This document shows positions 2 through 36,264 of a stretch of DNA of 64,000 bases, piece by piece. Made by a program: the position numbers and the translations under genes. Positions within the stretch are counted from its first letter, which is position 1; each line of letters opens with the position of its first letter. The DNA is from a virus. The stretch is from the IMG/VR virus record IMGVR_UViG_3300025168_000049, positions 22,775 through 86,774 of that record; one strand, 5' to 3'. The notes below the pieces were generated by a model. It was not told the origin of the DNA, did no database searches, and was given only the letters and a program-made list of their open reading frames with translations.

Positions 2-277
2 GCCACAGATAACTTTAATTTAGAAAAATCTTTGAAAGAATTAGATATAAAAGATAAAGAGGTTAATATAAAAGATAGGGAAGTTAATGAGAAAGTTAGA
101 AGTAATAAGTCTGGAGAAGGGCAGAGTAAAACTGAAACTGATGCAAAACGTAAAGAAACTAAACAAACAGGAGCATTAAAAAATAGAGAGTTAGCACAAA
201 AAGCTGAAGAAACTAAGCAGAAAGCTCAAGAAGCTAAAGCTAAGATCAGTGAGTCTAAGAAATCCAAAGATAAATAA
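2..277 (+). CDS. C-terminal fragment of an upstream gene, probably the portal protein (5' truncated)
   Basis: The frame is open from position 2 (gcc aca gat aac...) into the tracked ORF, so TTG at 32 is probably not the real start. The sequence is a K/E-rich coiled-coil tail. Position before scaffold and MCP matches crAss-type order (synteny only). Confidence 0.55.
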   Translation, partial: ATDNFNLEKSLKELDIKDKEVNIKDREVNEKVRSNKSGEGQSKTETDAKRKETKQTGALKNRELAQKAEETKQKAQEAKAKISESKKSKDK

Positions 278-3006
278 TGAATAGTGAAGGAGCTTTAAGT
301 TCAGAAGAAGCATTAGCAATTATTAAGTCTTCAATGTCTGGAGAATTAGAAATTCCTGCGCACAAAGCTATAGAACAAACAGCTTTAAAACAACAGCAAG
401 AATTAGTTGCGCAACAAGAAGAACAAGAACAGTCTCAACAAGGTCCAATGCATCAGATGCCTGATGGTAGCATGATGCCAGGCGAAACTCATGGTGAAGC
501 CCCACCCCCAGCTTTAGGAAAACTAGTACCTACATATACGAAAACAGGAGATCTTGTTAATTCAGGGGATTCACTTACACAAGGATTTAGTAATGCAATT
601 GGGACTCAGCGTGGTAATATAATTGGACAACAAGGAGAATATGCTCACGGTGGTGAGCATGAAGCTCCAGAGTTAGATGATATTGATTCTATTACATATG
701 AGGATGGAGGAATTTCACCACAAAATCAAAAGACAGAGTCTGCTAAGATAGCACGTAATTATGTAAATGTTAAAGGACAGTTATATCCAAATGCAGTAGA
801 TGAAGATGGGTTAATAGAAGATAAATCTAAATTTCCAGATGATAAGGCTTTTTCTATGTATAAGGAAGCTGTTTTAGAAACAGAAGGAGAAAGATTAACA
901 GGATATTTACCTAATAATAAATTTTCAGGTGTAACTGTCGGCAGAGGTTTTGATATAGGACAGTTTAGTACAAGGCAGATTAAAACAATGTTTTCTGATG
1001 ATAAGGTTTTAATGCACAAGTTGCTTCCATATGCAAATAAAAAGAAACCTGAACTAGACAAATCAAACATAAATGGTAAAAAACTAAAGATATCATCATC
1101 AGAATCTGAAAAAATAAATGAAACTTTATTTAATCAACAATGGTCTTCTATAAAAAGTTATACAAACGGTAAAGGAGCTACTGAAGATAATGTTAAAACA
1201 TTAATGCAATTAAAACATTGGTCTGGAGCTTTAGGAAATACATCAGGAAATTTAGCTCCTAAAGGAGAAAATCATATTTGGAAAGAAATCCAAGATGGTG
1301 ACTTTGATACACAAGAGTTATATAATGCAGTTATGTTTACCCGTGAGGATTTAGGTGAAAAAACTAAAGAGAATGAATGGAAATATAATACATTAAAAAA
1401 ACATCATACTAATTTAGGTAAACAAATGAAAGAAGTGCATGGTGAAAATTGGGAAAGTGGATTAGCAGTAACACCGCCTCATCCAGGAGAGTTTCTGATG
1501 AATATGTATAAAATGCAATTAAAAAATGGAGTATTAGATAGGCGAATAGAGCATAAATATAAAAGGTGGTTACATGAAGACTGGGATAAAGATGGTGATG
1601 GAATTCCTTTTAGTATAGACAAAAATGATCATCAACATTTTGAAAGAAAATTTGCAGAAGGTGGGGTAAGAAAGTATCATAATGGAGGTGAAGGGCCAGG
1701 GCATCCTCATGAAGAGGAAGAAATAAAGCCTGACGGATATACAACTACCAAAAAGTATAATAGCGGCAGGGTTACAACACATTCAACTTTTAATGATGAA
1801 AGTAAAAGAAGTCAGGGATCCGGATATGTTAGTGCAATACCGACAGATTCAGAAAATTATATATTAAATGCAGGAATGCTTCCTGAAGTAAATATAAAAG
1901 AAAAAGATCCTAGAAGTTGGGTAAAGAGAAACTACCAAAAGTATATAGCTCCAATAGGACATGGAGTATTAGATGTTGTAGGTATGATACCTGCAGCTGG
2001 AGAATTAGCTGATGGTATTAATGCATTATGGTATACTGCAGAAGGTAATTATGAGGATGCAGCTTTGTCAAGTGCAGCTATGATTCCATTTGCAGGATGG
2101 GCAGCAACTGCAGGTAAATGGGGAAAGAATACTATTAGAGCCATGGATAAAGTAACACCTGGAGGAGGAGGAATGTATCAACAATTAAGATATTTACAAG
2201 ACGTAAATCCTAAACTCGCTGGAGAGTTAGGAATTAAAAATAAGAAGCAGATAAAAAAGATGCTTAAGAATGACCCTGCTGCGGCACAAAAAATAATTGA
2301 TGATGCAAATGCAGGAAAAGTATTTGATGGTGGTAAAAAGACAAAGTATGTAGAACCTACAGTTGATGACTTTGGTAAAAAAGTTAATACTGATGACTTG
2401 CGTAGTACGGGTGATGATATTATAGATAATAGACTACTTGATACGCAAATTGATCCTGACTTAACATTTAGAAAATCTGCTTTTGATAGAACACATCCTA
2501 ACAGAGGTGGACATACATTTAGCGATATAGCAGGAGAATATACTTGGTTAGATAACGCATCTAAAATTGATAATCATGTTATTGCACCATTTAATCCAAA
2601 GTTTAATAAAGCTGGAGATATGACTTCTTTTGATTTACAGAAACTTGATGATTATGTGCCTTTTAGTTCACATAAAATGGAATTCCCTAATCTAAATAAT
2701 ACCGGTTTTAAAAATGATTTAACTCATACAATGAAAAATTTACAAAATAACGGGTTCCATCATATGGATATGCATGGTGGTAATATACTAGTAAAATCAG
2801 ATAATTTTGGTAAGATACTAGATTATAAAATTATTGATCCAGTAGGATACACTCATGACTTCCAAAAGTCAGAAATGTTTTTAAGGAATAATCCAGAATT
2901 TCAAGATTGGGATGGAATACTTAAGAATAGAAGTAGAGTTAATGATGATATATTTAGAATCCAAAATGAGATGAAACATGGTGGACTAAGAAGAAAACGA
3001 AAATAA
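277..3006 (+). CDS. 909-aa modular effector-like virion protein: pesticin-type muramidase + pre-toxin TG + atypical (RIO/Kdo/Bud32-like) kinase
   Basis: Muramidase motif EGERLTGYLP..SGVTVGRGFDIGQ (~883-963). PT-TG motif GHGVLDVVGMIPAAGELADGINALWYTAEGNYEDAALSSAAMIP (~1954-2118). Kinase motifs HHMDMHGGNILV (2758-2793) and KIIDP. Overlaps the upstream stop (TAATG). Confidence 0.7.
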   Translation: MNSEGALSSEEALAIIKSSMSGELEIPAHKAIEQTALKQQQELVAQQEEQEQSQQGPMHQMPDGSMMPGETHGEAPPPALGKLVPTYTKTGDLVNSGDSLTQGFSNAIGTQRGNIIGQQGEYAHGGEHEAPELDDIDSITYEDGGISPQNQKTESAKIARNYVNVKGQLYPNAVDEDGLIEDKSKFPDDKAFSMYKEAVLETEGERLTGYLPNNKFSGVTVGRGFDIGQFSTRQIKTMFSDDKVLMHKLLPYANKKKPELDKSNINGKKLKISSSESEKINETLFNQQWSSIKSYTNGKGATEDNVKTLMQLKHWSGALGNTSGNLAPKGENHIWKEIQDGDFDTQELYNAVMFTREDLGEKTKENEWKYNTLKKHHTNLGKQMKEVHGENWESGLAVTPPHPGEFLMNMYKMQLKNGVLDRRIEHKYKRWLHEDWDKDGDGIPFSIDKNDHQHFERKFAEGGVRKYHNGGEGPGHPHEEEEIKPDGYTTTKKYNSGRVTTHSTFNDESKRSQGSGYVSAIPTDSENYILNAGMLPEVNIKEKDPRSWVKRNYQKYIAPIGHGVLDVVGMIPAAGELADGINALWYTAEGNYEDAALSSAAMIPFAGWAATAGKWGKNTIRAMDKVTPGGGGMYQQLRYLQDVNPKLAGELGIKNKKQIKKMLKNDPAAAQKIIDDANAGKVFDGGKKTKYVEPTVDDFGKKVNTDDLRSTGDDIIDNRLLDTQIDPDLTFRKSAFDRTHPNRGGHTFSDIAGEYTWLDNASKIDNHVIAPFNPKFNKAGDMTSFDLQKLDDYVPFSSHKMEFPNLNNTGFKNDLTHTMKNLQNNGFHHMDMHGGNILVKSDNFGKILDYKIIDPVGYTHDFQKSEMFLRNNPEFQDWDGILKNRSRVNDDIFRIQNEMKHGGLRRKRK

Positions 3007-3069: not shown

Positions 3070-3077
3070 TACTTTTG
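3070..3077 (+). promoter_or_regulatory. Bacteroidota sigma -7 promoter element (TAnnTTTG)
   Basis: TACTTTTG in the intergenic gap, 28 nt before the scaffold ATG. No clear -33 TTTG. Confidence 0.55.
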
Positions 3078-4311: not shown

Positions 4312-5760
4312 ATGGCAATAAGCGGAACTAACATAAGCGTTCAGAAAGCCTACTATAATGACAGTCAAATGACTGACATGAATAGTTTGGCTAATGCACT
4401 CTTATCTAAACCAACCGAGTTGTCACCTATAATCACGCACCTTTCAGGAAAAGATGATAAACGTTTTCCTCTTTCGTTCTTAACAGAGGGGGTAGGAAAC
4501 GTAAAATCTATTGATAGATTGGAGTATGAATATAGAGTGAAAACTCACACTTTAAAAACAAGACCTGTAGCAGTAACAAATAGTGGTATTACTGCAAACA
4601 CAACTTTTGGAGGAACATTTGAACTGGTATTTCCAGACAAATGGTTTATCTTCCCATACGTATTGATTAATGCGGCGGGAGAACAGGCAAGAATCATGGC
4701 AGAACCAGTACAATCTGCTGGAGGACAATGGAAATACTCTATGCAATTAGTAGATCCATCACCAACATCTTCACTTTCTACTGGATTTACAAATGGAGAT
4801 CTTTGGGCTCAATTATATGCACCTGTAGGAGTAGACTTCTCTAGAGGGAATGCAGCTAACTGGGAAACTCCAGGGAAAGTAAGAAACAAAATTGGTACTG
4901 TTAGAAAATCTTACCACATGTCTGGGCATGCTAAAGACTTTGTGGCAGAATTTGCTCTACCTACTAAAGGTGGAAAAAGTACTAAACTTTGGATGGACTA
5001 CGAAGAATATAATCACATGTTAAACTTCAAAGAAGAGTGTGAAATGTTTTACTGGTACGGACAAAAAACTTACGATTCAAACGGTCAAAACGCTATGCGT
5101 GATGAAAATGGCCAACCTGTAATCGTAGGTCCTGGTCTTTTGGAACAAATCATCAATACGGATACATATTCTACGATGACTGAAACAAAGATCAAAAATA
5201 TTATTGGCGATTTATTCTATGGAATGACTGATGCTAATAAAAAGCAAGTTACCCTATATACGGGAACTGGAGGAGCGCGTGAATTTGATGAAGCTCTTAA
5301 AAATCACTTTTCTGGAACTGCAGGAGGATGGAAAGTTGGTGGAGAGAATAGATTCATCACAGGATCTGGAAGATCATTAGGTATGAGTGGTTACTTTACT
5401 TCGTATGAGCATGTAGATGGCCATACTGTAAATGTAGTTAAATTACCTTTATTTGATCACGGTCCAGTAGCACAAGCTCGTACAAAGCACCCTGTTACAG
5501 GTTATTCACTTGAGTCTTACAGAATGGTATTTGTTGATCAATCAAATTATGATGGTCAGGCAAACCTACAAATGATCTCTAAGAAAGGTCGTGAGATGAT
5601 GAGATGGTGTGTAGCTGGTTCAGTAGTACCTAGAGGATTTGATTCATCTTCTTCTAGAGCGTCTGATGTTGACGGTGCTAGCGTTCACATGTTAAAAACT
5701 GCAGGTATTGTATTAAGAAGATTTGATACTTCACTTGACATTACATGTATCGCTGAATAA
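4312..5760 (+). CDS. Major capsid protein (crAss-like, HK97 fold)
   Basis: 482 aa with segments typical of crAss MCPs (TDMNSLANAL, FPLSFLTEG, DENGQPVIVGPGLLEQI, YTGTGGAREFDEA, HPVTGYSLESYRMVF). Flanked by structured leader and trailer. Confidence 0.85.
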   Translation: MAISGTNISVQKAYYNDSQMTDMNSLANALLSKPTELSPIITHLSGKDDKRFPLSFLTEGVGNVKSIDRLEYEYRVKTHTLKTRPVAVTNSGITANTTFGGTFELVFPDKWFIFPYVLINAAGEQARIMAEPVQSAGGQWKYSMQLVDPSPTSSLSTGFTNGDLWAQLYAPVGVDFSRGNAANWETPGKVRNKIGTVRKSYHMSGHAKDFVAEFALPTKGGKSTKLWMDYEEYNHMLNFKEECEMFYWYGQKTYDSNGQNAMRDENGQPVIVGPGLLEQIINTDTYSTMTETKIKNIIGDLFYGMTDANKKQVTLYTGTGGAREFDEALKNHFSGTAGGWKVGGENRFITGSGRSLGMSGYFTSYEHVDGHTVNVVKLPLFDHGPVAQARTKHPVTGYSLESYRMVFVDQSNYDGQANLQMISKKGREMMRWCVAGSVVPRGFDSSSSRASDVDGASVHMLKTAGIVLRRFDTSLDITCIAE

Positions 5761-23653: not shown

Positions 23654-24439
23654 ATGGCAAAAGATGAATTTTACGGGAAAGGCTCTAAGCGCATAAGTGG
23701 CGACTTTTTGGAACCTAGTACCCCTGTTTTGTTTGAGGATGGCGGCGCCTCTGAAGATGAGACACGTAAGGAAATGCGAAGACGACAAAGAGAGGAGCGC
23801 AAAACCGCAAGGAAAAAAAGAAGATCTACTAGGAAAACAAGACGTCTAACAAAGAAAATAAACAGACGTAAGGAAAAAACTAAAAAGATTGAAGGTAAGT
23901 TAGAAACTCATACTGAGAAGACTCTAACAAAGAAAAAAGAGTATGCTCCAACTACAGAAGGAGATAAAAATACTCCACCTAAATCGGCTACAGAAACACC
24001 AGATGTTAAAAAGGATAAAAAGAATTCTAAAAGTATAGATAATATGTCTTTTAGTGAGGCTTACAGAACTCAAAGAGATGCTAATAAAAAAGCAGGTATA
24101 AAGCATTACGGAGATGATTCAGGGCATTTTACTTGGAGAGGTAAGGAATATAGTACGGAGTCAAAATCTGAGCAAGATAAAAGAAAAGGAAAAACTAAGA
24201 AAAAAGTAGTTAAAAAGAAAGAAGAGACACCGGTAGTAAAAGAAACAACTCCTAAGAAGAAACAAACTGTAAATCCAAAGCATGATCAAGACGGTAATGG
24301 TGTTCCAGATTTAGTTCAAAAACCTAAGACTCATGATGCAGATAACGACGGAATTCCAGATTTGATCCAAAGACGTGAGACAACAAAGATCAAGAAGAAG
24401 AAAGGTGGAATAAAGTACAAAAGAGGAGGAAGAAGATAG
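23654..24439 (+). CDS. Basic Lys-rich putative internal virion protein with GG tags
   Basis: FEDGG near the N-terminus and KKKGG-IK-YKRGG at the C-terminus. Also an FSEAY...FTWRGKEYST motif and two DxDxxGxPD repeats. Confidence 0.55.
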   Translation: MAKDEFYGKGSKRISGDFLEPSTPVLFEDGGASEDETRKEMRRRQREERKTARKKRRSTRKTRRLTKKINRRKEKTKKIEGKLETHTEKTLTKKKEYAPTTEGDKNTPPKSATETPDVKKDKKNSKSIDNMSFSEAYRTQRDANKKAGIKHYGDDSGHFTWRGKEYSTESKSEQDKRKGKTKKKVVKKKEETPVVKETTPKKKQTVNPKHDQDGNGVPDLVQKPKTHDADNDGIPDLIQRRETTKIKKKKGGIKYKRGGRR

Positions 24440-31485: not shown

Positions 31486-32856
31486 ATGACAAAAATAAAA
31501 AAATTAAAGACCGCTGTTGCGTATAAAAGTAAGTATGCCCTAGGAGGCAAGTTAGAGAAACCAAAAATGAAAAAGAGCAAACGTAAGTTTGTGGCAGGTG
31601 GATCTCAATACGATCAAAACACTATTAGTGCTTTTCAGAACCCTAACTATACAGGGAATATAGTAGCTCAAGGTACTCAAGAATCTGCAGATGCGGCTTC
31701 AGAACATTTTGATTCAGAGGCTGAAAAACTAAAAACTTCATCAGAGACAATGGTTAACGAGATGAAAAATGAAGATGAGCAAACTAAACAAAGACTTATA
31801 CAAGAGGATGCAGCCAACAAACAAAAACAAAATGCAGTTGAAAGCACTGCACAAACGGCTGCACAAACTATAACTGAAGGATATAAAAAGTTTGCTCCTA
31901 ACAGTGCTACTGCAAAAGAAACAAAAGGAGATGGTATTGGTGGACTAGTTGGTTCTATTGGACAGGCTAGAAATCAATGGAAAGCTATAGGAGATGCTAA
32001 AAAGGCTGCTAAATTTGCAAAAGGTTTTAATGAAACTAAAACTGCCTTTGATGTTGGACAAAGATTATCAATGGGAGAGGATGCATATAAGCTGTCTCAA
32101 AGCATGAAGAATGTATCAAATATGAAAACTACTCTAGATCAAACTAAAGTAGGAATGAATATGTTTGATAAAGGTAGTAAAGGTTTAGATATGTTAAATA
32201 AAGGTAAGGATGCTGGTGATGTATTTAAAAAAGGAACAGAACTCGCTAGTACAATGGATAAAACAACGGGACTTTTAAAACTAGGAGAAAAAACACAAAA
32301 ATTAAGCACGATGAGTAAAGTTGGTACAGCTGCTAAAACAGTAGGGGCTGGTGTCAAATCTTTTGCTACTTCGGCTTCAGGGCTAGGTCTTATAGCAAAT
32401 TATGCAGGAAAAGGAATAAGCAAGTTATCTGATGATGGGGATCCTACTAAATCTAACTTTGGAGAATATGCTGGAGCTGCTTTATCTACTGCAGGATCTT
32501 GGGCAGGGACAGGAGCAATGATTGGATCAGTAATACCTGGTATTGGAAATGCTGTTGGAGGAGCTGTTGGGGCAGTTGCAGGAGCTCTCTATGGTGTAGG
32601 AAAAACATTTTTTGGTACTAGAAAAGCTAAACGTGCTAAGGCAAAAGCAGATCAGCAAAGAGCTGAGAAAGTGGGTGCGTATAATGAAAAATTAAAAGGA
32701 AGATTTGGACATGCTGCACAATCAGCTAGAGCTATGGAGATTAAATCAAAAACAACCTCTGGACAAGATTTAGGGTGGGATACAACAAGATCTAGATATG
32801 GAGGAATTAGAAAAGAATATGGGGGGCAACGACAAATACCAGCATACGCTGCATAA
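31486..32856 (+). CDS. Cargo/ejection protein 1-like with glycine zipper
   Basis: GAMIGSVIPGIGNAVGGAVGAVAGALYG membrane hairpin; follows the muzzle gene; GG tags at both ends. Confidence 0.65.
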   Translation: MTKIKKLKTAVAYKSKYALGGKLEKPKMKKSKRKFVAGGSQYDQNTISAFQNPNYTGNIVAQGTQESADAASEHFDSEAEKLKTSSETMVNEMKNEDEQTKQRLIQEDAANKQKQNAVESTAQTAAQTITEGYKKFAPNSATAKETKGDGIGGLVGSIGQARNQWKAIGDAKKAAKFAKGFNETKTAFDVGQRLSMGEDAYKLSQSMKNVSNMKTTLDQTKVGMNMFDKGSKGLDMLNKGKDAGDVFKKGTELASTMDKTTGLLKLGEKTQKLSTMSKVGTAAKTVGAGVKSFATSASGLGLIANYAGKGISKLSDDGDPTKSNFGEYAGAALSTAGSWAGTGAMIGSVIPGIGNAVGGAVGAVAGALYGVGKTFFGTRKAKRAKAKADQQRAEKVGAYNEKLKGRFGHAAQSARAMEIKSKTTSGQDLGWDTTRSRYGGIRKEYGGQRQIPAYAA

Positions 32857-32868
32857 AATACTACGACT

Positions 32869-35800
32869 ATGAATAGAAGATTTATAAATAAACTAAGAAA
32901 TAAATATGCTACAGGAGGAGAACTAATGACTAACTCTATGGATCCAGCTCCAATGGGACAACTAGAAGAATCTAGCACAGTTCCTTATGGGTCAGTACCT
33001 ACTTATGAAGCACAAGGAAATAATGTTCCTAAACCACCATCTACAACAATGGCACCAGTTACGGGTGGAACAGATCCTAAAGTGTTAAAAGCAGAGAGAG
33101 ATAAGTTAGCTCTTATGGATGAAGCAACACTTCGTGCATATTATACAGAGATGTATACTAATCAAGTAACACCTGTAATACCTTTTGGTCAAACTAGATT
33201 TAGTAATGATCCAGGATATGGCCAAGGGAGTACTAGATTTAACTATTCCCACACACAAGATAAGAGTGCATTTAATAATATTTATACTTTGACAGATTAT
33301 GATCCGACAAATGAAGGAGAGCAAGATGTTAATGTAAGGAATATAGATGCTGCAAATTATATATATGGTAATACAACTGATGGGTTAATAGCTACTACTA
33401 CTAAATTTGAGGAAGACAGAACGACACAGAACGCTGCTAATGCTTTATTAGACGGAGATGAAAAAGAAGCTGACCGTATTACTACTAATCAGGTTAACAG
33501 GACTATAATTAATGATCTAATAAATCAGAAAGGCTCGTATTACGAGGAAGGTTGGACTATAGGAGATGGAGGTAAGCCTGTACCACCTGTAAATCAAGGT
33601 CAGTTTAACAGAGACCTTATGCGTGAAGAAGCTGAATCTTGGGAGAAAGAAAAAAATCGTCTTATAGAGGCAGGTATAATGGGAGACGGATCACAGCCTG
33701 TAGTTATAGAAGACGATGCTAAGTTTAATGTAGCGGCACTACCAATGGTTGTAGCATCAGGTGTATTTGCCGCAGGGCAGTGGGGTCTGAATCCTGCAGC
33801 TGACGCCCTGTTTTTAGAATCTTTAGTTTTGGCAGGAATATCAACTATAACTTATAAAGAGTTGCAGGGGATGTATAAAAATTATCAAGAAGGTGCGACA
33901 ATGCAGAGGACTATAGATGCTCATGGTAAACAAATGGAAATTGATTTTGGGGCATCAGCTTCTACTGCTACTTCTGCAGCAGGAAGTCATCCTAATGGAC
34001 CTGAATATGACCCAAAGAAAGATCCGGATAAAAGTAGAGCTGCTAAATTTGCTGAAGCTGTAAAAAAGTGGGGAAAGAATGCTGGTAAGCTAGTTTGGAA
34101 TAAATATACTAGGAAATTTGGGATTTATGTTATAGTTGGGGGTACAGGAAGGTTTATATATGAAGTAATTAAACATGGCGGAATAGGTAATACACCTGAT
34201 GGTCAAAATAGAAATGATAAAAAGAAAGAGAAAACTCTAGATAATGATGAATGGATAGCAAATCCAGCGGACCCATCTGGATGGACATTAATGAATCCTG
34301 CAACAGGTGATATATACGATAAACGTACTGGGAACCATTTCACTAAAGATGGAGAACCTATAAAGAATAGAGGACAGAACTATGAATTTGGCGGGTCTAG
34401 AAATACTCTAGATAGAATGCGTCAATACTCAAGAGGAGGCGAGGCTTTACCAGGAGGTATGATGGAATCAATACCAGGTTCTGATGCTGTAAAATTTAAT
34501 GGTCAAACTCATGAAGAAGGAGGAATAGAATTAGATTCTAGAACAGAAGTAGAAGACGGGGAAACTATGGATAAAGTTAATATGAGTAAGGGAGGTCCTT
34601 CAGACTATTTCTTTTCTAAAAAATTAGGATTCGCTGATAAGCATGAGAGACTACTAGCTAATGGAGGTAGTCAAACTGATATCAATTACTTAGCTAAAAT
34701 GCAAGAAAAAGCTGCTGGGAGAAATCCAAGTAAAATTGCCGCAGAATATGGGGGAGTTAGAAAATTTGAAGAGGGAGGAGCAAATAGAAAAACAGATAGA
34801 CAATATGCATACGGAGAAGATTATACAGAGAATGTAGGAGGAGCACATGGAGAGGCAGGATACACAGGACTGGGATCTGACGGATCTTATACTCCAACTG
34901 ATCCAGGAGAAGAAGGATACGCTAATACACAATCTTCAATAGGAAAAAAAGGAAATAACTATTGGGGAGATAAACATATTATGTCTGATGAAGGACGTAA
35001 AGATTTCTACAATAGAAATAAAAATATTTTAAATGGTATGGATATTAATAGTTGGGAAGATTACGACCCAGCTAAACATGCAGGAGATTTCCAAAAAGCA
35101 TTTAACACAGATTTAAAAGAACGTTATAATAAAGACGAGAACTTACGAAACAGTTTAAAAAGTAGAGGGATTAATAGTGTTGAGGACTTTACACAACAGG
35201 CTGGATTTCATAATAAAGGTCATAAATCTAAACGATTAGATAATGCTCATGGAGAATACACATGGAGTAGAACCTCTGCATATAATGAGCCAGAAGATAA
35301 AGAAATAATCCCACCAACAGACGACGGAGGAGGGGACGAGGAAATTACTACAACAGATTTAAAGGTTCAAAATCAAAAAAAAGGCTTTAATTTGTTAGGG
35401 GCCGCACAATTAATACCTGCAGCTATGGCATTTATGGATAAACCTGATTACATGGAATCTCCTGATTTAGTTGCTCCTGGTATTGTTGTTCCTGAACGAA
35501 TATCTAAAACACATTTAGAAAGAGTAAATTATAATAATCAAAGAGATAAAGAAGATAGAAACTACCAGGGACTAAGACAAGATATCAATACAAGTGGTAT
35601 AGGAGGAGGTAGTGCGATGTCTAACAGATTAGCGGCATATGCAATGTCAGAAGCAAACCAAAGAAAAATTGATGCTGATGAATCTAATGTAAATGTACAA
35701 ATTGGGAATCAAGAAGGTACTATGGACCAACAAAGAAAAGGAGAAAATGCTAGTAACATGTTATCAGCTAGTACTACTAATGCTAGTAACTACTTAGATG

Positions 35801-36264
35801 CAGACAAAACTAATGCTAAGAATGCTATGTATGTAGATGAATTTAATTCTGCAGCAGATGCAGCTACATTTGATAGAAAATTAGATGCTGTACAATCTGG
35901 TGTACAAGGTGTAGCAGGTATGTGGAATGACCAACAAAATAGAAATACACAAGAGCGTATAGCTTTTGCTGAAGCAGGTAATAGAGGAACCTATGAGAGA
36001 GAAAGAGCTAAGTGGGACTCTAAAAATGAGAGTGAAAGATTAACCGCTTCTAATAGTAGTACTTCAGAAAGCAGTACTTCAACTACTAAACGTACTTTTG
36101 TAACAGGAGCAGATGGCACTAAATATTGGAGTGACGGAACTTCAGAGAAACCTGGCAGCGCAGAAACAGGCGGGCCAAGGTATAATACAGAGTTTAAAAA
36201 ACGTTTAGCTCGTAAAGGAGGTGTTCATGAAGGTTCTGCTTCGTGGAAAAGAATGTTTGGATAA
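32869..36264 (+). CDS. Cargo/ejection protein (1131 aa), GG-punctuated
   Basis: crAss-type GQTHEEGGI...EVEDGE motif, hydrophobic hairpin, NAxN 11-mer repeats and about 8 xxGG tags. Confidence 0.6.
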   Translation: MNRRFINKLRNKYATGGELMTNSMDPAPMGQLEESSTVPYGSVPTYEAQGNNVPKPPSTTMAPVTGGTDPKVLKAERDKLALMDEATLRAYYTEMYTNQVTPVIPFGQTRFSNDPGYGQGSTRFNYSHTQDKSAFNNIYTLTDYDPTNEGEQDVNVRNIDAANYIYGNTTDGLIATTTKFEEDRTTQNAANALLDGDEKEADRITTNQVNRTIINDLINQKGSYYEEGWTIGDGGKPVPPVNQGQFNRDLMREEAESWEKEKNRLIEAGIMGDGSQPVVIEDDAKFNVAALPMVVASGVFAAGQWGLNPAADALFLESLVLAGISTITYKELQGMYKNYQEGATMQRTIDAHGKQMEIDFGASASTATSAAGSHPNGPEYDPKKDPDKSRAAKFAEAVKKWGKNAGKLVWNKYTRKFGIYVIVGGTGRFIYEVIKHGGIGNTPDGQNRNDKKKEKTLDNDEWIANPADPSGWTLMNPATGDIYDKRTGNHFTKDGEPIKNRGQNYEFGGSRNTLDRMRQYSRGGEALPGGMMESIPGSDAVKFNGQTHEEGGIELDSRTEVEDGETMDKVNMSKGGPSDYFFSKKLGFADKHERLLANGGSQTDINYLAKMQEKAAGRNPSKIAAEYGGVRKFEEGGANRKTDRQYAYGEDYTENVGGAHGEAGYTGLGSDGSYTPTDPGEEGYANTQSSIGKKGNNYWGDKHIMSDEGRKDFYNRNKNILNGMDINSWEDYDPAKHAGDFQKAFNTDLKERYNKDENLRNSLKSRGINSVEDFTQQAGFHNKGHKSKRLDNAHGEYTWSRTSAYNEPEDKEIIPPTDDGGGDEEITTTDLKVQNQKKGFNLLGAAQLIPAAMAFMDKPDYMESPDLVAPGIVVPERISKTHLERVNYNNQRDKEDRNYQGLRQDINTSGIGGGSAMSNRLAAYAMSEANQRKIDADESNVNVQIGNQEGTMDQQRKGENASNMLSASTTNASNYLDADKTNAKNAMYVDEFNSAADAATFDRKLDAVQSGVQGVAGMWNDQQNRNTQERIAFAEAGNRGTYERERAKWDSKNESERLTASNSSTSESSTSTTKRTFVTGADGTKYWSDGTSEKPGSAETGGPRYNTEFKKRLARKGGVHEGSASWKRMFG

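Follow-up and report, generated by a model that had tools for sequence, protein, structure and literature searches.

A mosaic gene next to the portal gene of a marine crAss-like phage: member of a hypervariable multi-module family and candidate injected effector

Why does a crAss-like phage encode, directly after its portal gene, a protein that combines a muramidase domain, a domain shared with bacterial polymorphic toxins and a kinase-like domain? Crassviruses rank with the commonest phages, yet little is known of what enters the host alongside their DNA and virion RNA polymerase. The gene in question is an open reading frame (ORF) for a protein of 909 amino acids (aa), designated P0001, in IMG/VR virus record IMGVR_UViG_3300025168_000049, an 86,774-bp viral record bearing direct terminal repeats. 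The stretch analysed, here the window, comprises 64,000 nucleotides (nt), bases 22775–86774 of that record. The source is a marine crAss-like phage of the podovirus type whose hosts are probably Bacteroidota. As judged by comparison with related loci, P0001 is a member of a hypervariable family of multi-module proteins encoded at the same post-portal site in a large marine crAss-like clade. From its sequence and from analogy with known systems we lean, with some confidence, towards P0001 being a multi-effector protein that is packed into the capsid and injected.

The head genes are arranged in the order TerL, portal, 909-aa gene, acidic scaffold-like gene and crassvirus major capsid protein. 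An earlier note on this DNA had placed the ORF between portal and scaffold, and the ORF, the portal and the matches of the pre-capsid gene agree with that placement; the scaffold label of the 373-aa gene reflects position and composition only. A single gene separates portal from capsid in p-crAssphage, Cellulophaga phage phi14:2 and Flavobacterium phage Fpv3, which makes the 909-aa ORF an extra gene. Searches for related loci with the single 909-aa protein found none; alignments used as queries succeeded, and a portal-based scan yielded 80 related loci with portals 64–70% identical, of which 69 extend past the portal. The portal stop codon of P0001's own locus overlaps the ATG of the ORF (TAATG), and this recurs in the relatives as an abutting or overlapping start, a gene being present at the portal stop in 69/69 of the loci that reach past it. 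It precedes a scaffold-like gene in every locus reaching so far. The complete proteins encoded range from 328 to 1477 aa and most have no BLAST similarity to P0001; the kinase is present in that of locus L007 only, the pesticin module in none and the core domain in ~17. Pfam searches of 47 post-portal proteins (from L007, L008, L009, L012 and 38 of loci L088–L163; alignment A6) matched DUF192 in 17, SLT in 7 and PG_binding_1 in 3, with neither of the MuF families, PF04233 and PF06152, among the matches. Thirteen further homologs from databases each share only part of P0001, joined with DUF192, phage lysozyme, PG_binding_1 or unknown parts. The exchangeable modules envisaged by the earlier note are therefore apparent in the wide variation of length and content, and by these comparisons the locus is hypervariable with swappable modules. 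In the human gut phage cr10_1, the same site is occupied by a 'peptidase' gene and a small regulator. Residues 61–137 of the 432-aa 'peptidase' (NC_055875.1, L003:6177–7475) are core-like, matching the L142 core with E 1e-7, and behind them comes HEISH, a zincin-type (HExxH) motif.

The segments of P0001 follow one another as the earlier note had read them, namely leader, muramidase, linker with pre-toxin domain, kinase and basic tail, although the borders have moved, the muramidase now occupying aa ~178–392 rather than 146–458 and the kinase-like domain aa ~691–898. The leader ends in EYAHGG, and a second Gly-Gly (GG) pair is present at aa 144–145. Residues 7–130 match the N-termini of the SLT-bearing proteins P0039, P0058, P0073 and P0041, and the leader profile matches most post-portal proteins of the relatives. 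These open with ~25 residues in common, their leader closing at a YxxGG junction, ...YQKGG, at aa 75–140, and in the alignment EYAHGG sits under this conserved ...YQKGG of the clade. In 17 of the 47 proteins searched with Pfam, the leader is DUF192 (PF02643, unknown function), ending in ...IE[ST]PxxYQKGG; DUF192 was not found in the genome that encodes P0001.

The domain behind the leader is confirmed, by sequence and by structural modelling, as a pesticin-type muramidase. The match to PF16754 (Pesticin) scores 45.5 bits where the cut-off is 25.8 (E 1e-11), and a profile of 30 relatives matches residues 177–351 of pesticin (4AQN) with E 7.5e-27. The AlphaFold2 (AF2) model of the domain has a mean predicted local distance difference test score (pLDDT) of 81.3, and when it was submitted to Foldseek, pesticin chains took ranks 1–10 (E 6e-4 to 2e-3, probability 1.00) and T4 lysozyme came next. 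The catalytic columns align to FEGF...GVT...GVDLG of pesticin, with E203, T220 and D226 corresponding to pesticin E178, T201 and D207 in columns that are invariant, or nearly so, in the 30-sequence alignment. An extension without assignment follows, up to aa 461. Many database relatives of the muramidase are 800–950-aa proteins in which the pesticin domain is C-terminal, and in a tblastn search of P0001 against named phages the sole match was to the pesticin domain of a Vibrio phage protein annotated 'VgrG'.

The core domain is the only part of P0001 common to most of its homologs. It had been labelled PT-TG in the earlier note, a label that the family's own model rejects. The hidden Markov model PF14449, which as a positive control gives a match in B. 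subtilis, has no match at E ≤ 10 on aa 501–688 or in a six-frame search of the genome, none in 8 phage relatives at E ≤ 1 and none in 10 bacterial core carriers at E ≤ 0.1. Profile-profile similarity is weak, hhalign giving a probability of 2.5% for the core against 13 diverse PF14449-matching sequences (10 strong from Bacillota, 3 weak from Sorangium) and of 45.7%, over just 24 columns, against the Sorangium subgroup alone (5 sequences). In the ESM Atlas, PT-TG clusters are the nearest named neighbors of the core, with scores of 0.84–0.87 that fall below the 0.9 level and provide a lead only. The link to polymorphic toxins that the label had implied does stand. A scan of bacterial genomes identified 49 loci with the core, up to 68% identical to the phage core over ~70 residues, in Actinomycetota, Bacteroidota, Myxococcota, Chloroflexota, Spirochaetota and others. 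In these bacteria the core is located mostly ~80–250 aa ahead of the C-terminus of large proteins, and near the N-terminus in a few. The carriers bear RHS repeats/DUF6443, WXG100, a type VII secretion system (T7SS) signal or ALF repeats, and a C-terminal Tox-REase-9, Toxin-deaminase or AHH domain was recognized in 3 of the 10 that were scanned with Pfam. Judged by this architecture, the core is one of the pre-toxin domains of polymorphic toxins, and the Pfam copy used has no model for it. A tree of 57 core domains gave no resolution; its viral and bacterial rows are intermixed and point to no donor. One copy is on a contig binned as an archaeon (L033, MVQI01000055.1, Methanosaeta sp. metagenome-assembled genome) and may represent either a genuine archaeal toxin or faulty binning. 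The IMG/VR contigs L016–L020 encode 176–190-aa proteins that contain little beyond the core and have neighbors unlike crassvirus head genes.

The C-terminal module probably has a minimal protein kinase-like fold, with catalysis as a prediction. The kinase recognized in the earlier note is supported by motif and by structure look-ups but not by Pfam, whose scores at the catalytic loop are all sub-threshold (ABC1, 18.2 bits with a cut-off of 22.9; PK_Tyr_Ser-Thr, 18.1 with 23.1; Pkinase, 14.3 with 31.7). The four residues of the HxDxxxxN...D motif, H829, D831, N836 and D854, are invariant in 6/6 homologs, and the motif aligns weakly to the catalytic loop HRDLAARN...DFG of CSK; K733, E754, K789 and an RGGH stretch are also conserved. 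Named feature matches in the ESM Atlas are all kinase-like, and 10/10 of its structure matches are to Kdo, Pkinase or APH, with template modelling (TM) scores of 0.52–0.61 over aa ~692–885. An exhaustive VIA-align search with a low-confidence AF2 model (pLDDT 42.6) returned kinase-fold chains as nearly all of the top 50, the best at Z 8.0 and a root mean square deviation of 3.7 with 109 residues aligned. The profile of alignment A1 had no match in the PDB, and a search for stand-alone kinases of 118–378 aa found none.

The modules are set in a frame of GG-containing seams. In the earlier note the segments of P0001 were described as GG-delimited, and for the 909-aa protein alone the number of GG pairs is not above chance (11, versus 8.0 in shuffles; p 0.16); the seams reach significance only when counted family-wide or over the remaining ORFs of this phage. 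The post-portal proteins of 48 relatives contain [YF]xxGG 123 times (23.6 ± 5.2 in shuffles) and GG.{5,6}GG 30 times (4.9 ± 2.4), both counts being inflated by kinship. A GG followed by a short basic tail is present within the last 25 aa in 39 of these 48 (shuffle mean 8, maximum 17). A conserved N-terminus with variable modules had been expected in relatives, and the leader is indeed kept, but the conserved frame also includes this C-terminal GG-basic tail. The pattern GG-[VILMK]-[RK]-x3-4-GG, derived from P0001 and its homologs, occurs 3 times in the other ORFs of the phage, where 0.046 are expected and 0/1500 shuffles reach that number. Two of the three ORFs concerned (Table 1) are located directly after the muzzle gene, the position of the cargo genes gp45 and gp46 in crAss001.

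What we infer, namely packaging, ejection, the role of the core, the target of the kinase and any cutting at the seams, can be put together as follows. The 909-aa gene would be co-translated with the portal through the TAATG overlap, and the conserved leader, probably with the GG and basic tail, would recruit the protein to the procapsid, close to the portal. At infection the protein would be ejected along with the DNA, its muramidase would open the cell wall locally, the core would help to deliver or release the module behind it and the minimal kinase would act on host proteins in the cytoplasm, as part of host takeover. Since the cell attacked is the host, which the phage kills, the protein could do without an immunity gene. 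This reading is favored because of the position of the gene, its coupling to the portal, the conserved frame and the precedents of MuF toxins, polyvalent proteins and crassvirus cargo. Several observations weigh against it. P0001 has no similarity to MuF, and no likeness to a known packaged protein was found. The kinase domain is below every curated sequence cut-off, the AF2 model of aa 501–909 is poor (pLDDT 42.6, from 11 sequences) and a weak lead only, and the ATP-binding lysine and glycine loop are not assignable without a reliable model. A C-terminal GG within 25 aa occurs in 9/63 ORFs of this phage, approximately the chance rate. In some relatives (P0058, P0015/16) a cell-wall domain follows the core, so gating of cytoplasmic payloads cannot be all that the core does.

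The earlier note had termed P0001 a polyprotein, which implies cleavage. A phage or host protease might cut at the GG seams and so free leader, muramidase, core and kinase in the capsid or in the host, and consistent with this, seams lie where modules meet, behind the leader and ~10 aa short of the C-terminus, and are strongly enriched family-wide. Pre-toxin domains have been proposed as processing sites (Zhang et al. 2012, PMC3482391), self-processing metallopeptidases are frequent in polyvalent proteins (Iyer et al. 2017, PMC5512222) and the cr10_1 post-portal protein has an HExxH motif as well as a core-like region. However, proteases of the S78, C39, ClpP and C48 families, the only ones searched for, are not detectable in the complete genome. 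Cutting at seams that are 2–10 residues from a terminus would also yield trivially small peptides, and a terminal signal, or a remnant of cassette exchange, accounts for such near-terminal seams no less well than cleavage does. We regard processing as a possibility of rather low probability.

Rather than being packaged and injected, P0001 could be made late, remain unpackaged and be released at lysis, as a bacteriocin-like toxin directed at neighbors or as a lysis helper acting on the wall of the dying host. Pesticin is a bacteriocin whose killing domain is the one found here, the core belongs to inter-bacterial toxins and a dying producer has no need for an immunity gene. Translational coupling to the portal and conservation of the leader across the clade nevertheless count against a lysis-released toxin, the protein has no signal peptide and no pesticin-like receptor-binding part, and a kinase requires cytoplasmic ATP; this alternative is improbable. 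Least likely is an external decoration of the capsid or portal vertex, head fibre-like with variable C-terminal domains for surface binding, for although a head-fibre gene follows the portal gene in PhiCrAssBcn11, as in crAss001-like phages (Bayfield et al. 2023, PMC10172136), and the post-portal site is plastic across Crassvirales, head-fibre similarity was looked for and none was found, a capsid surface is an implausible place for enzymatic payloads whose substrate is peptidoglycan or that require ATP, and basic tails and seams common to the ORFs in cargo position point inward.

The surroundings of the gene are those of a crassvirus. TerL, upstream, matches phrog_6681 (E 1e-130) and the whole portal gene (L002:17677 to window position 277; 791 aa) matches the portal family phrog_6547 (E 1e-126) and, by tblastn, crassvirus portals. 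The portal has a Lys/Glu-rich C-terminal extension of ~130 residues (window 2–277 and L002:19600–19899), into which the matches of portals from other crassvirus families do not reach, stopping near aa 645–668 of the 791. Downstream of the capsid gene there are tail ring proteins, the muzzle protein and three giant ORFs, in crassvirus order. Among the ORFs of this phage, the leader, lysozyme, core and kinase profiles come together only in the 909-aa ORF. In keeping with two further statements of the earlier note, the genome has no match to PF04233 or PF06152 at E ≤ 10, thus no MuF domain, and the gap between the 909-aa gene and the scaffold-like gene is 99 nt, a space in which the ORF list shows no ORF and hence no immunity gene. 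Phage_integrase has no match in the complete genome, which gives no sign of a temperate lifestyle. Megablast of 12 kb against named phages gave no match. The 99-nt gap contains a TACTTTTG box at window positions 3070–3077, 28 nt before the ATG of the scaffold-like gene, and because this box precedes that gene, the TerL-portal transcription unit may end with the post-portal gene. The TACTTTTG sequence conforms to the Bacteroidota-type −7 element, TAnnTTTG.

Table 1. Positions, in the window, of P0001, its segments, neighboring genes and other ORFs with GG seams
Feature	Position	Strand	Basis or remark
Portal gene, 3′ end, Lys/Glu-rich C-terminal extension	2..277	+	stop TAA at 275–277
Post-portal mosaic protein P0001, 909 aa	277..3006	+	ORF list and translation
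N-terminal leader, aa 1–126, ending in seam EYAHGG (aa 121–126)	277..654	+	matches to other N-termini
Pesticin/T4 lysozyme-like muramidase domain, aa ~178–392	808..1452	+	Pfam, profile, AF2, Foldseek
Double seam GGVRKYHNGG, aa 462–471	1660..1689	+	GG-x6-GG also at module borders of homologs
Core, 'pre-toxin-type' domain, aa 557–630 (LDxxGxxPxxGExxDxxNAxxY...LSxxxxIPFxG)	1945..2166	+	common to homologs
Minimal protein kinase-like domain (probable), aa ~691–898; H829, D831, N836, D854	2347..2970	+	motif, structure look-ups
C-terminal seam and basic tail MKHGG-LRRKRK, aa 899–909	2971..3003	+	aligned in kinase-bearing homologs
Acidic scaffold-like gene, 373 aa	3106..4227	+	BLAST to pre-capsid gene of cr10_1, Fpv3, p-crAssphage and close relatives
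Crassvirus major capsid protein	4312..5760	+	PF23898, E 5e-81; phrog_11589, E 2e-85
Seam-bearing ORF, KGGIKYKRGGRR at C-terminus	23654–24439
Seam-bearing ORF, YGGIRKEYGG near C-terminus	31486–32856
Seam-bearing ORF, YGGVRKFEEGG in middle	32869–36264

The locus amounts to a natural payload library in a fixed frame, with the same position, leader and tail, and what is injected, and for what purpose, should therefore be testable by module swaps in a cultured relative. Through the core, with up to 68% identity across phyla, phage effectors are linked to the polymorphic toxins used between bacteria, and this short conserved domain offers a handle for studying toxin release or cell entry. A more speculative suggestion, which we put forward as doubtful, is that three elements, the conserved N-terminal leader, seams of the form K-[YF]-[KQ]-x-G-G and the GG with basic tail, constitute a code by which proteins packed and injected by marine crassviruses are loaded or processed, that the core, absent from Pfam, is a delivery device common to injected phage effectors and to bacterial polymorphic toxins with several routes of secretion, and that both draw on one cassette pool. 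Should the seams prove to be a loading or cleavage signal, cargo proteins would become recognizable from sequence alone, and if there is a single pool, phages and toxin loci would take their payloads from a common stock.

Several known systems provide comparisons. The internal proteins of T4 and gp16 of T7 are kept inside the particle and leave it ahead of the DNA or together with it; gp16 contains a lytic transglycosylase, and the T4 internal proteins use a short N-terminal capsid-targeting sequence. Cargo proteins amount to ~5.5 MDa in the particle of the crassvirus crAss001 (Bayfield et al. 2023, PMC10172136). Its gp45 and gp46 are likewise kept in the particle and ejected, and they are encoded after the muzzle gene, whereas the 909-aa gene follows the portal gene and its product is known from sequence alone; PHROGs gave no crAss001 cargo match for P0001, no crAss001 cargo sequence having been compared directly.

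The MuF toxins of temperate phages are likewise encoded directly downstream of portal genes (Jamet et al. 2017, PMC5576092), and they share with the post-portal proteins described here a conserved N-terminal part, variable C-terminal effectors and a proposed delivery from the capsid. A small ORF is present downstream of 89% of MuF toxins (PMC5576092). Unlike them, the 909-aa protein has no MuF domain, is followed by the 373-aa scaffold-like gene rather than by a small ORF, comes from a phage without an integrase, and has several payload modules, GG seams and a GG-basic tail. It resembles the polyvalent proteins of phages and conjugative elements in joining several unrelated effector domains within a single polypeptide whose gene lies among those for the virion, with cell-wall enzymes, a truncated kinase and cassette variability; polyvalent proteins with a truncated Ser/Thr/Tyr-type kinase have been reported mainly from phages of Bacteroidetes and Verrucomicrobia (Iyer et al. 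2017, PMC5512222). It differs from them in its fixed post-portal site, conserved ends, pre-toxin-type domain and lack of an MPTase domain, and its kinase has HxD without the insert between His and Asp described for polyvalent proteins (PMC5512222).

With bacterial polymorphic toxins (Zhang et al. 2012, PMC3482391), the 909-aa protein shares a core, up to 68% identical, upstream of a C-terminal module, but it has a phage leader, no secretion domain and no immunity gene. Yersinia pestis pesticin (4AQN, 4EPF) and VgrG-pesticin fusions have the same muramidase fold with the Glu, Thr and Asp residues kept; unlike pesticin, the 909-aa protein has neither a translocation nor a FyuA-binding domain, and its muramidase is internal to a protein of the head module. 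Taken with these likenesses and differences, the 909-aa protein is a variant of the phage polyvalent and MuF-like effector proteins.

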